From: Microbulbifer sp. MKSA007
Lineage (GTDB): Bacteria; Pseudomonadota; Gammaproteobacteria; Pseudomonadales; Cellvibrionaceae
Direction of reading: 5' to 3'
Length of the DNA: 24,000 nucleotides
Assembly (NCBI GenBank): GCA_032615215.1
Contig: CP128431.1
Coordinates: 134,680-158,679, forward strand
Position numbers and translations under genes: made by a program. Numbering within the stretch: the stretch's first letter is position 1; each line of letters opens with the position of its first letter. Of the stretch, positions 15,782-18,155 are shown in pieces. The notes under the pieces are model-generated. The model made no database searches and had not been told where the DNA came from. It was given only the letters and a program-made list of their open reading frames with translations.

Positions 15782-17317
15782 ATGTCGGAGCTTCTCAAAC
15801 GGTTTAAGGGCATTACAGAAGACCCAGGCCTCTCCTTTACGCAAAAGGCGCGTTATCTCTCGCTGGAGGCAGAAAACTCTCTGCCTTATCCTGAGCTTGA
15901 TGAGGAAACCGCAAAGGCATTGGAAGAGCGCGTTATCTGCGACATGTACGAGGGACATGCGCCTTTCAAACCACGCTATGTGATGCCCGACTATTCCGTT
16001 GTTCTTGAAAAAGGCAGCACCTTCCTGGAGCTGGACCCAGCCACCACGCTGGATGAGGCCATCAACTCCCTCATGATTGCCTATCACCACGTGCCATCCG
16101 TCACCAACATGCCGGTGTTTATTGGCCGCCTCGACAATCTGCTGCTGCCGTATTGTGATGATGTCAGTGATGAAGACCTTTACAAAAAACTGAAGCTGTT
16201 CTGGCGCTATCTGGACCGTGTCCTGCCGGACGCATTCATGCATGCCAATGTGGGGCCAACCGACAACCGTGTTGCCCGCACCATCATGCGTATTGATGCC
16301 GAGCTGAAGCAGATCGCTCCGAACCTGACCTTCATCTGGGATCCGGACGTCAGCTCTGACGAAATCTTCTCTCAGGCTTGCAAAAGCATTATTGAATGCT
16401 CCAAACCGCACATCGCCAATAGCCCACTGCATCAACCTCTGTTTGATGAATACGGTTACGGCGTCGCCAGCTGCTACAACGTGTTGCCACTGTGCGGTGG
16501 TGCATCCACGCTCACCCGTATCAATCTTCGAGAAGTGGCGCGTCGCTCCAAAGACACGGCGGACTTCTTCGAAAATGTTCTGCCGAAGTACATAGATCTC
16601 AACTTCCGCCTGACAGAAGCGCGGATTGATCACCTCTTCAACAAATCCGGTTTCTTTGAAAGCTTCCTCGTGAAGGAGGGCTGGATCCGTAAAGACCGCT
16701 TCACCGCCATGTACGGCATCTTTGCCATGGCCCAGTGTGTGGACGAGCTGCAGGCCAAGGAAGGCCGTTCCGGCAAATACGGTCACGATGAGACAGCCAA
16801 CCAGCTTGGGCATCGCATCTCCAAAGTGCTCTTCGAAGCTGTTGAAGCACGCCCAATGGAAAATTGTTGGCAAGGCAAGGCTATGCTGCATTCGCAAGCG
16901 GGCCTCAGCGATGATGATGGCTGCACACCGGGTGTTCGCATCCCTTATGGCAGCGAGCCAGATCCAGTCACGCACGTGCAGGCACTGGCAGAACACCACG
17001 CGTTCTATTCATCCGGTGTTTCAGAGATCCTGACACTGGACGAGACCATCGAGAACAATCCAGCAGCGTTGGAGCAGCTGGTCAAAGGTGCATTCCAGCT
17101 GGGGTTCCGCGAGTTTTCTGCCAACGTCTCCAACAATGATCTGGTGCGTATCACCGGTTACATGGTGCGCTTGTCAGACATCGCGAAGTTCAAAGAATGT
17201 GGCGGGTCTCGCATCAACACAACGGTGCTGGGCGCTGAAGCCGCTGATAAAGGTAAAATACTGGAGCGTGCACCGCGGGTGATGAGCCATGAACTTGCCC
17301 CTCGCTACAGTCAGTAA
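15782..17317 (+). CDS. yjjI: YjjI-family glycyl-radical enzyme (short GRE, substrate unknown)
   Basis: C-terminal glycyl-radical fingerprint NDLVRITGYMVRLSD (Gly codon 17156-17158). Mid-protein Cys loop GVASCYNVLPLCGG (Cys codon 16472-16474). Blocks I remember from E. coli YjjI: LPDAFMHANVGP, NLTFIWDP, CSKPHIAN, ILTLDET, ILERAPRVMSHE. AGGA RBS 9 nt before ATG 15782. Confidence 0.85.
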   Translation: MSELLKRFKGITEDPGLSFTQKARYLSLEAENSLPYPELDEETAKALEERVICDMYEGHAPFKPRYVMPDYSVVLEKGSTFLELDPATTLDEAINSLMIAYHHVPSVTNMPVFIGRLDNLLLPYCDDVSDEDLYKKLKLFWRYLDRVLPDAFMHANVGPTDNRVARTIMRIDAELKQIAPNLTFIWDPDVSSDEIFSQACKSIIECSKPHIANSPLHQPLFDEYGYGVASCYNVLPLCGGASTLTRINLREVARRSKDTADFFENVLPKYIDLNFRLTEARIDHLFNKSGFFESFLVKEGWIRKDRFTAMYGIFAMAQCVDELQAKEGRSGKYGHDETANQLGHRISKVLFEAVEARPMENCWQGKAMLHSQAGLSDDDGCTPGVRIPYGSEPDPVTHVQALAEHHAFYSSGVSEILTLDETIENNPAALEQLVKGAFQLGFREFSANVSNNDLVRITGYMVRLSDIAKFKECGGSRINTTVLGAEAADKGKILERAPRVMSHELAPRYSQ

Positions 17318-18155
17318 GGTACTAAAGTTCTCTTGCGTGGATGGGCCGGGCAACCGGCTTGTCCTATTTCTGCAAGGCTGCAACTTCGCCTGCCCGACCT
17401 GCCACAACCCGCACACCATGAAGCTGTGCAACGACTGCGGTGACTGCGTGCCAGAGTGCCCGACCGGCGCTCTGACCATCATGCAAGGCAAGGTGGTGCA
17501 CGATCCAAGCATCTGCGACCAGTGCGATAAGTGCTTGGACGTCTGCCCCATCAATGCCAACCCTAAGGTGACCCAGTACAGCGTTGATGATGTTCTGGCG
17601 CTTCTTTACCAGAACAAACCATTCCTGAATGGCATCACCATTTCCGGCGGTGAGGCAACCACCCAGCTGAAGTTCATCATCGCCCTGTTTACGGCTATCA
17701 AGTCCGATGAGAAGCTGAAGGATCTGACTTGCTTCATCGACAGCAACGGCTATCTGCCAGAAGCAGCATGGAAGACAGTTCTGCCCGTTACCGATGGCGT
17801 GATGCTGGACATCAAAGCCTTCGATAACACCCTGCACAGTTTGCTCACCACTCGCCAAAACGAGCGCGTCCTGGCCTCAGCCAAGCTGCTCTTTGCAGAA
17901 GGCAAGCTGCACGAACTGCGCTATCTACTCATTCCAGATCGTACGGATAGCCCTGAAGAGATCAGAGAACTCAGCAGTTTCGTCAAAACCCTGAGCGCCG
18001 AACTGCCTTTACGGCTCAACGCCTACCAACACCACGGCGTCAAAGGCGAAGCCCTCACCTGGCCCACGATGAAGGAACCAGATGTAGAACGCATCGCCGC
18101 GGAGTTGCGGTCAACTGGCCTGACGAACGTGGTGACGCCAGCGATTTATATCTAA
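17289..18155 (+). CDS. yjjW: YjjW-family radical-SAM glycyl-radical enzyme activase
   Basis: FSCVDGPGNRLVLFLQGCNFACPTCHNP contains the CX3CX2C motif at 17379-17402. Two additional CX2CX2CX3C ferredoxin-like clusters (CNDCGDCVPEC, CDQCDKCLDVC) and the SAM-binding GGE motif (ITISGGEAT). The start overlaps the GRE gene by 29 nt. Confidence 0.9.
   Translation: MNLPLATVSKVLKFSCVDGPGNRLVLFLQGCNFACPTCHNPHTMKLCNDCGDCVPECPTGALTIMQGKVVHDPSICDQCDKCLDVCPINANPKVTQYSVDDVLALLYQNKPFLNGITISGGEATTQLKFIIALFTAIKSDEKLKDLTCFIDSNGYLPEAAWKTVLPVTDGVMLDIKAFDNTLHSLLTTRQNERVLASAKLLFAEGKLHELRYLLIPDRTDSPEEIRELSSFVKTLSAELPLRLNAYQHHGVKGEALTWPTMKEPDVERIAAELRSTGLTNVVTPAIYI

Follow-up and report, generated by a model that had tools for sequence, protein, structure and literature searches.

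The 24,000-nucleotide stretch analysed here (contig CP128431.1, positions 134,680 to 158,679, referred to as the window) carries yjjI and yjjW, which encode a short glycyl-radical enzyme (GRE) and its radical S-adenosylmethionine (SAM) activase. Taken as a whole, the pair is best explained as an anaerobic two-gene GRE/activase operon that probably carries out a reaction other than ribonucleotide reduction, pyruvate formate-lyase (PFL) chemistry or 1,2-elimination, with a ribosyl compound as our guess for the substrate. The identity of YjjI, together with the generic radical relay that comes with it, is practically certain, and the pair is an ordinary, already annotated member of a curated family rather than a new kind of object. 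The genes and their catalytic motifs lie as follows:

15782-17317, plus strand: yjjI, YjjI-family glycyl-radical enzyme, 511 aa
16469-16480, plus strand: Cys loop S230-C231-Y232-N233, with the C231 codon at 16472-16474 (predicted thiyl-radical Cys)
17147-17161, plus strand: glycyl-radical loop R456-I-T-G459-Y460, with the Gly codon at 17156-17158
17289-18155, plus strand: yjjW, radical-SAM activase, 288 aa, TIGR04041 match
17379-17402, plus strand: CX3CX2C motif (C31, C35 and C38; CNFACPTC) in the YjjW translation, site of the radical-SAM [4Fe-4S] cluster, within the Radical_SAM and Fer4_12 matches
17427-17546, plus strand: ferredoxin-like insert with two CX2CX2CX3C motifs in the YjjW translation, predicted to hold two auxiliary [4Fe-4S] clusters

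Hidden Markov model (HMM) searches support the family assignment on both sides of the pair. YjjI scored 693.2 bits against TIGR04040 (curated cutoff of 498.3, E 1.6e-208), spanning profile positions 2-497 of 497, and 669 bits against PF11230 (cutoff of 23, E 3.8e-201). YjjW, with the Pfam domains Radical_SAM, Fer4_12 and Fer4_7, scored 368.6 bits against TIGR04041 (curated cutoff of 250.2, E 1.9e-110), and its scores against all other activase models in NCBIfam were far under their cutoffs. These results uphold the YjjI/YjjW assignment of the first-pass annotation, a model's reading of the bare sequence, whose open reading frames (ORFs), motifs, coordinates and 29-nt overlap were likewise all found in the sequence as given. 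Moreover, the window YjjI is 99% identical to the loci of Pseudovibrio sp. JE062 and P. denitrificans JCM 12308, and from this sequence match the window DNA is taken to be Pseudovibrio, a genus whose public records already name the gene "YjjI family glycine radical enzyme".

The yjjI frame is open from a TTG at 15752, and the ATG at 15782 was favoured as the start on account of an AAGGA at 15769-15773, located 8 nt 5′ of this ATG, and of homologue length (i.e., the resulting 511 aa fit the lengths of the homologues). The earlier length of 511 aa therefore holds from the ATG, whereas the residue numbers given with it, Gly469 and Cys241, count from the TTG and become Gly459 and Cys231. The yjjW gene directly follows yjjI in 80 of the 82 loci compared, and the 29-nt overlap (17289-17317) is kept in 36 of these 80, E. 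coli among them; this conserved overlap implies translational coupling of both genes. As a separate observation, the yjjI frame is broken in the P. denitrificans JCM 12308 draft genome (locus L072, ~10001-11532), where the longest ORF is 426 aa, apart from yjjW, reflecting either a frameshift or an assembly error.

The catalytic residues expected of a GRE are present and strongly conserved. The glycine of VRITGYMVR is residue 459, 52 residues before the C-terminus, and the first cysteine of the Cys-loop stretch VASCYNVLPLCGG is residue 231. Conservation was scored in an alignment of 83 close sequences and in 22 distant family representatives: C231 is invariant in both sets and is the sole cysteine conserved family-wide, while R456 and G459 do not vary in the close set and reach at least 90% conservation in the distant one. 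Ser230 is likewise invariant among the close sequences. Over the distant representatives, P69, G78, G115, D118, C231, E299 and G412 are invariant, and E57, R65, Y66, Y71, H154, N233, R246, H370, Q372, D378, R386, R456, G459 and R496 are conserved at 90% or more. In the activase, the two additional cysteine clusters described in the first-pass annotation are found at C47-C57 (17427-17459) and C76-C86 (17514-17546), and Fer4_7, Fer4 and Fer4_10 matches span residues 45-90. YjjW scored 133 bits against TIGR02494 and 138 bits against the hydroxyproline dehydratase activase model.

An AlphaFold2 model of YjjI built on 83 homologues (pLDDT of 87.3, pTM of 0.88) was compared with the PDB via Foldseek, and every match was a GRE, in agreement with the fold that the first-pass annotation had proposed to check by structure prediction. 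The top 24 PDB matches were class III ribonucleotide reductases (RNRs) from Prevotella copri, phage T4 and S. thermophilus (E down to 1e-17, TM scores of 0.62-0.76), followed by PflD, HypD, YbiW, PFL, BSS and propanediol dehydratase (E 1e-13 to 1e-12). Judged from these structure matches rather than from a strand count, the predicted fold is the GRE-type ten-stranded alpha/beta barrel. In the model, C231 sits in a turn between strands 226-228 and 234-236, and G459 in a turn between strands 454-457 and 460-463, which is the placement that a finger-loop arrangement would require. No solved YjjI structure was present in the PDB by sequence or by fold search.

A PDB search with the single YjjI sequence yielded nothing meaningful (best E 0.32), and only the family profile reached PFL and NrdD. 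In this profile, the YjjI stretch 'YGvvSCYNsLPiGG' aligned to PFL 'YAIACCVSPMIVG', placing C231 on C419 with a Ser in place of C418, while the Gly loop aligned to PFL RVSGY (G734) and to P. copri NrdD RITGY. The best sequence-profile matches in the PDB were formate acetyltransferases over the Cys-loop region (~60 residues, E 4e-4 to 1e-3), and hhalign of YjjI against E. coli NrdD gave 89% probability over 409 columns, with C231 on C384. YjjI thus combines an RNR-like barrel and a lone thiyl cysteine with conserved polar and basic residues particular to its family, which is consistent with a small anionic substrate and with a reaction outside the described classes. Since only one cysteine is conserved, and an NrdD-type Cys/Met, a Cys-Cys pair and a Cys-x-Glu are all missing, YjjI is not expected to perform ribonucleotide reduction, pyruvate cleavage or canonical 1,2-elimination.

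The region upstream of yjjI contains two elements that may bear on its expression:

15710-15723, plus strand: candidate CRP/FNR-family activator box TTGCGGTAGTTCAA, a 14-mer of the form TTG-N8-CAA, 72 nt 5′ of the yjjI ATG
15746-15751, plus strand: possible -10 hexamer TAAGAT, read from the sequence

The box core TTGCGnnAGTTCAA is identical in nine Pseudovibrio loci, including the distant L011 and L012 (75-81% protein identity), in which the intergenic DNA around the box has fully diverged. Support for this candidate box is thus a phylogenetic footprint in the aligned upstream regions and not motif frequency. Its TTGCG half-site presumably resembles Dnr/NnrR sites. If TAAGAT were to serve as -10, the box centre would fall near -41.5, a class II FNR-type geometry; a simple sigma-70 scan did not call this hexamer, and a promoter and terminator scan was uninformative, with counts at shuffle level and its one terminator-like hairpin inside yjjW. 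A second, relaxed FNR-type match (TTGCTAATAATCAA, at 13984-13997) was observed 18 nt 5′ of the GST gene and lies within chance expectation.

Experimental data on relatives point the same way. FNR is a direct activator of yjjI in E. coli (PMC3688515), and in E. coli and Salmonella the gene clusters transcriptionally with narGHJI and carries FNR and NarL-type motifs (PMC3228777). In Yersinia intermedia, anaerobic induction amounted to 4.3-fold for yjjI and 2.1-fold for yjjW (PMC3792023). Anaerobic control of the window operon via the conserved candidate box is consequently the reading we favour, with reasonable though not strong confidence. The first-pass annotation had seen a tension in the presence of an O2-labile radical enzyme among O2- or peroxide-dependent genes, and while both are indeed there, including PhyH and di-haem peroxidase genes, their coexistence is unremarkable. 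Pseudovibrio strains FO-BEG1 and JE062 are capable of denitrification and of glucose fermentation, with formate, lactate, acetate and ethanol as products (PMC3806328), so that an O2-labile enzyme beside O2-dependent genes is expected rather than paradoxical.

The earlier statement that the neighbourhood offers no substrate clue holds within the window, where gene annotation revealed no transporter, microcompartment or pathway gene, and does not hold for homologues elsewhere. The neighbourhood comparison that had been suggested was run by clustering the ORFs of the 82 loci into 42 groups and adding 11 loci from other clades (~50 contexts). The sole universal neighbour was yjjW, and three themes recurred directly beside the pair, i.e., nucleoside genes, methylthioadenosine-salvage genes and anaerobic-ubiquinone genes. 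Among the nucleoside genes, deoCABD runs divergently from yjjI in both E. coli and Edwardsiella, and nupC adjoins yjjIW in two loci (L087 and L088); it is the next gene upstream in L087 and the next one downstream in Edwardsiella. In Gilliamella, deoB, deoD, nupG, add, a 5′-nucleotidase gene (not in L076), cdd and deoA precede yjjIW on the same strand, and in L025 a RihA-like nucleoside hydrolase gene and deoB lie beside the pair.

Genes of methylthioadenosine salvage stand directly beside yjjIW in three unrelated lineages. In Aliiroseovarius, mtnP is directly upstream (L044, 8999-9925; 516 bits versus a cutoff of 437), and in seven Woeseiaceae loci mtnA and a class II aldolase-like gene adjoin the pair (e.g., L023, 12352-14105). 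In L027 (8327-9787) and L042, the neighbours are deoB and a gene for a deaminase resembling methylthioadenosine/5′-deoxyadenosine deaminases. As for the third theme, yjjI lies 1-10 nt downstream of an SCP2, U32 and U32 gene set (UbiT/U/V-like) in three Rhodobacterales metagenome-assembled genomes (L052, 6348-10390; L056, 67-4929; L058, 2931-9937), with UbiD and a UbiX-like flavoprotein encoded divergently beside this set in L052 and L058. In these three loci, an oxygen-independent ubiquinone operon appears to end in yjjIW.

A further recurrent gene encodes a ~288-aa AraC-family regulator (AraC_binding and a helix-turn-helix (HTH) domain, HTH_18), which is divergent from yjjI and located 73-206 bp upstream of it in 15 alphaproteobacterial loci (L033, L038, L043, L045-L048, L050, L051, L054, L055, L064, L067, L069 and L071; e.g., L045, 9021-9887). 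This protein is a candidate for a dedicated yjjIW regulator, whose ligand would reveal the substrate. In E. coli K-12 (NC_000913, L001), a perfect DeoR-type palindrome, TGTTAGAATTCTAACA, was observed at 12665-12680 inside yjjI, ~400 nt past its start and on the opposite strand, and a copy with one mismatch at 13264-13279, 599 bp away and 45 nt before deoC. We take these palindromes to be DeoR operators, O1 being the one inside yjjI. The deo P1/O1 region overlaps the 5′ third of yjjI, and DeoR looping or antisense transcription could couple both units.

In total, a nucleoside or pentose-1-phosphate gene directly adjoins the pair in about seven independent lineages, where well under one would be expected by chance. 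We treat this adjacency as a lead and not as a result, and a nucleoside-derived ribosyl compound as the substrate class is accordingly a tentative proposal, possible but short of likely.

The proposed mechanism would proceed as follows. Under anoxia, a CRP/FNR-family activator would bind the box at 15710-15723 and turn the operon on. The CX3CX2C [4Fe-4S] cluster of YjjW, fed by the two auxiliary clusters, would then reductively cleave SAM, as known GRE biochemistry suggests, and the ensuing 5′-deoxyadenosyl radical would take a hydrogen from YjjI Gly459. The stored glycyl radical would be handed to Cys231, and the resulting thiyl radical may abstract a hydrogen from the substrate inside the RNR-like barrel. 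Going by the missing motifs, the ensuing reaction would be neither ribonucleotide reduction, nor 2-ketoacid cleavage, nor Glu-assisted 1,2-elimination. As substrate, we would guess a small anionic ribosyl compound from the breakdown of nucleosides or SAM by-products, such as a (deoxy)ribose phosphate, a 5-deoxy- or 5-methylthio-ribose-1-phosphate, or a nucleoside.

A bolder extension of this mechanism is that YjjI founds a third functional GRE branch, in which an RNR-like, non-RNR barrel would convert a ribosyl metabolite by radical chemistry of a new kind, the candidates being ribose or deoxyribose phosphate, or the 5-deoxy- or 5-methylthio-ribose-1-phosphate derived from 5′-deoxyadenosine or methylthioadenosine. 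We hold this extension to be rather doubtful. If true, it would provide facultative and strict anaerobes with an O2-independent route for the salvage of nucleosides or SAM by-products.

Several observations weigh against the preferred reading of an anaerobic operon acting on a ribosyl compound. The 24-kb window itself contains no nucleoside, pentose or transporter gene. The "nucleoside-related" class was set after seeing the data and covers ~8 of the ~50 contexts, so that the enrichment is suggestive and not proven; Proteus, most Clostridia, Roseibium and Hoeflea have no nucleoside-type neighbour, and eight clostridial loci showed no consistent neighbour at all, the nearest leads being a Bmp-type ABC transporter in Proteiniborus and pseudouridine-type genes ~6 kb off in L091. 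The ubiT/U/V-like genes directly upstream in Rhodobacterales form a competing context. With regard to control, the count of the box motif in the window was not significant (2 observed versus 0.79 expected), and a search of all 82 loci found TTG-N8-CAA consistently upstream of yjjI in Pseudovibrio alone and not in other genera, by which an FNR box as a family-wide feature was rejected as genus-specific. Finally, the hhalign gap at NrdD C175, one of the grounds for setting YjjI apart from RNRs, sits in a low-confidence alignment stretch.

The most serious competitor assigns YjjI to general anaerobic respiration, be it denitrification, N-oxide metabolism or anaerobic quinone supply, with the nucleoside adjacency being coincidental or the product of shared regulation. 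It would account for the co-clustering with narGHJI and the FNR/NarL-type motifs, for the direct FNR activation in E. coli, for the presumed Dnr/NnrR-like character of the TTGCG half-site and for the UbiT/U/V-like set 1-10 nt before yjjI in L052, L056 and L058, and most hosts are denitrifying or facultatively anaerobic Proteobacteria. Nevertheless, the pair also occurs in strictly fermentative Clostridia, Halanaerobiales and Atribacteria, nar, nir or nor genes were adjacent in none of the loci examined, and nucleoside or methylthioadenosine genes adjoin it in at least six independent lineages, making a respiratory role unlikely in our view. More improbable still is a role for YjjI as a minimal 1,2-eliminase or isomerase along the lines of the PFL-like dehydratases and the isomerases YbiW and PflD, in which another general base would replace the glutamate of Cys-x-Glu and the substrate would be a small alcohol, amine, sulfonate or sugar phosphate. 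The single catalytic cysteine, the two-cluster ferredoxin insert of the activase with its TIGR02494 and hydroxyproline dehydratase activase scores, and the fold matches to HypD, PflD, YbiW and propanediol dehydratase (E 1e-12 to 1e-13) are all compatible with such an enzyme, and E299, D118, H154 and H370, being invariant or nearly so, could provide acid/base function. However, Cys-x-Glu (CXE) is described as retained in all 1,2-eliminases and isomerases (PMC13450708), and the S-C-Y-N loop of YjjI lacks it in every member; furthermore, YjjI is ~250-300 residues shorter, its best fold matches are RNRs, and microcompartment or downstream aldehyde-handling genes are missing.

The two remaining explanations place YjjI within established GRE classes, and we consider both very improbable. 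A cryptic, stripped-down anaerobic ribonucleotide (or ribonucleoside) reductase would fit with class III RNRs as top structural matches, with the 89% hhalign probability against NrdD, with weak precomputed PF13597 (NRDD) matches on clostridial members and with the nucleoside genes near yjjIW in several lineages. Against it, equivalents of NrdD C175 and M382, the zinc ribbon and the ATP cone are missing, no NrdD model in NCBIfam or Pfam matched the window YjjI at E <= 0.01, and the activase architecture is not NrdG-like. In addition, E. coli nrdD mutants fail to grow under strictly anaerobic conditions despite having yjjI. A short PFL-type C-C lyase acting on pyruvate or another 2-ketoacid, in turn, could be read from the formate acetyltransferase matches over the Cys-loop region, from a PF02901 match of 20 bits and from old annotations listing HI0521 as a pflB homologue. 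The PF02901 match is under the gathering cutoff, though, the profile match spans only ~60 residues, and the essential Cys418-Cys419 pair of PFL is Ser-Cys in YjjI; the fold is moreover nearer to NrdD, and Pseudovibrio already makes formate in fermentation, presumably via a classical PFL.

With regard to distribution, HMMER was run exhaustively against 1.84 billion representatives clustered at 50% identity and returned 478 matches, of which ~25 were full-length; the family as a whole numbers approximately 2,400 members. Members from Alphaproteobacteria, Gammaproteobacteria and Desulfobulbaceae are 65-70% identical to the window YjjI, and the family extends, at 33-45% identity, to Clostridia, Halanaerobiales, Atribacteria and Actinomycetota. 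This compact and strongly conserved family argues for one specific and tightly constrained job, from Clostridia to marine symbionts. The first-pass annotation had stated that no substrate was assigned to it, which agrees with our literature search: YjjI is mentioned, and no paper was found that characterises it or assigns a substrate. Likewise, a search for glycyl radicals in combination with deoxyribose, nucleosides or phosphopentomutase gave no functional assignment. A June 2026 review of the GRE superfamily (Drennan lab) does not mention YjjI and states that whole clades are unvalidated. With PflD and YbiW solved in 2024, YjjI appears to be the last E. coli GRE without a reaction.

If the job of YjjI were assigned, the RNR-like side of the superfamily would gain a new reaction class. 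For this question the window is no better a test case than E. coli, beyond which the Pseudovibrio copy offers only a cleanly isolated operon and its sharply conserved regulator box. The analysis is useful for its leads, which narrow a substrate screen, i.e., the nucleoside, methylthioadenosine-salvage and anaerobic-ubiquinone neighbours, and the absent reductase, PFL and eliminase motifs.

Within the window, the pair is flanked by a lipoprotein gene and a convergent AraC gene, as the first-pass annotation had noted:

14951-15655, minus strand: lipoprotein ORF with an LLAGC lipobox and no Pfam match
18152-19138, minus strand: AraC/cupin_6 gene, convergent to yjjIW

Both flanks are unrelated to yjjIW. 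The upstream one consists of a GST gene and this lipoprotein gene, and the downstream one of the AraC gene, an isochorismatase-family gene, an ORF without Pfam match and a short-chain dehydrogenase gene. The window AraC was rejected as a dedicated yjjIW regulator: its conservation is limited to five close Pseudovibrio loci, and it is only 23-37% identical, mostly over the HTH, to the ~288-aa AraC found upstream of yjjI elsewhere. Being divergent from the isochorismatase-family gene, it probably serves that gene. Within 18152-20013, the isochorismatase-family product opens with a twin-arginine-like leader (SRRDALRGG...AHA), which points to a hydrolase that is exported, controlled by AraC and without connection to yjjIW. 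A riboswitch as substrate clue was rejected, with no Rfam match at the gathering threshold in the window or in seven clostridial loci.

Three further arrangements were observed elsewhere in the window. A CesT-family (type III secretion chaperone-like) gene adjoins a 486-aa ORF without Pfam match (21505-23613, minus strand), and both could form a chaperone-effector pair. An unusual fusion combines PhyH (phytanoyl-CoA dioxygenase) with a C-terminal Mpo1-like 2-hydroxy-fatty-acid dioxygenase in one ORF (22-1062) that may run past the window edge. Finally, the segment 2280-8003 carries genes for an extracytoplasmic function (ECF) sigma factor, a FecR-type anti-sigma factor and a TonB-dependent receptor with an STN domain, after which comes a gene for a di-haem cytochrome c peroxidase.

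The closest known counterparts of the window pair are E. coli YjjI and YjjW (b4380 and b4379), the type members of TIGR04040, TIGR04041 and PF11230 (formerly DUF3029). The window YjjI is 56% identical to E. coli YjjI over its full length (511 versus 516 aa), and the S-C-Y-N Cys loop, the RxTGY Gly loop, the gene order and the 29-nt overlap are shared between both pairs. Anaerobic control is shown for E. coli yjjI via FNR chromatin immunoprecipitation, whereas for Pseudovibrio it would follow from the conserved box. The pairs further differ in context, with E. coli yjjI being divergent from deoCABD and containing the DeoR operator O1 inside its coding region while the Pseudovibrio copy has no nucleoside genes nearby, and in host, i.e., an enteric bacterium versus an alphaproteobacterial marine symbiont.

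Among enzymes with an assigned reaction, the class III RNR NrdD is the best structural match to YjjI, with a homologous thiyl Cys and C-terminal Gly loop, although sequence identity is just 13-15%. YjjI begins at about NrdD residue 121 and thus lacks the NrdD ATP cone. It also lacks the C-terminal four-Cys zinc ribbon, having zero cysteines in residues 420-459, and the hhalign match stops at NrdD 624, before the zinc site. NrdD N174-C175 correspond to a gap in the YjjI profile and M382 is aligned to Ala229, both in a low-confidence stretch of the hhalign alignment. With the second Cys/Met, the zinc ribbon and the ATP cone absent, the NrdD-type machinery for formate-dependent ribonucleotide reduction would therefore be absent as well. 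YjjW in turn carries two extra ferredoxin-type clusters compared with NrdG and scored far under the NrdG cutoffs. The RNR-like GREs characterised so far are all ribonucleotide reductases (PMC13450708).

With PflB and PflA, the pair shares the glycyl-radical motif (RVxGY in PFL), the alignment of C231 with C419 in the Cys loop, and activation by a radical-SAM enzyme. In contrast, YjjI has Ser-Cys (S230-C231) instead of Cys418-Cys419 and is ~250 residues shorter, and YjjW scored 137 bits against PflA models (cutoff of 232). The two-auxiliary-cluster insert of YjjW is as in eliminase- and decarboxylase-type activases and unlike PflA or NrdG.

The GRE 1,2-eliminases and isomerases (glycerol and propanediol dehydratase, CutC, HypD, IslA, YbiW and PflD) have the single catalytic cysteine in common with YjjI, and their activases are of the same two-auxiliary-cluster, TIGR02494 subfamily-like type as YjjW. 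Instead of their Cys-x-Glu, the YjjI loop reads C231-Y232-N233, and a Glu two residues after the Cys was found in no YjjI family member aligned. At 511 aa, YjjI is also much shorter than the PFL-like eliminases and isomerases of 760-850 aa, as the first-pass annotation had pointed out for classical GREs in general, and its locus differs from theirs in having no microcompartment or downstream pathway genes. Within this group, YbiW and PflD were, like YjjI, long-orphan enzymes of E. coli, and both act on sugar phosphates.

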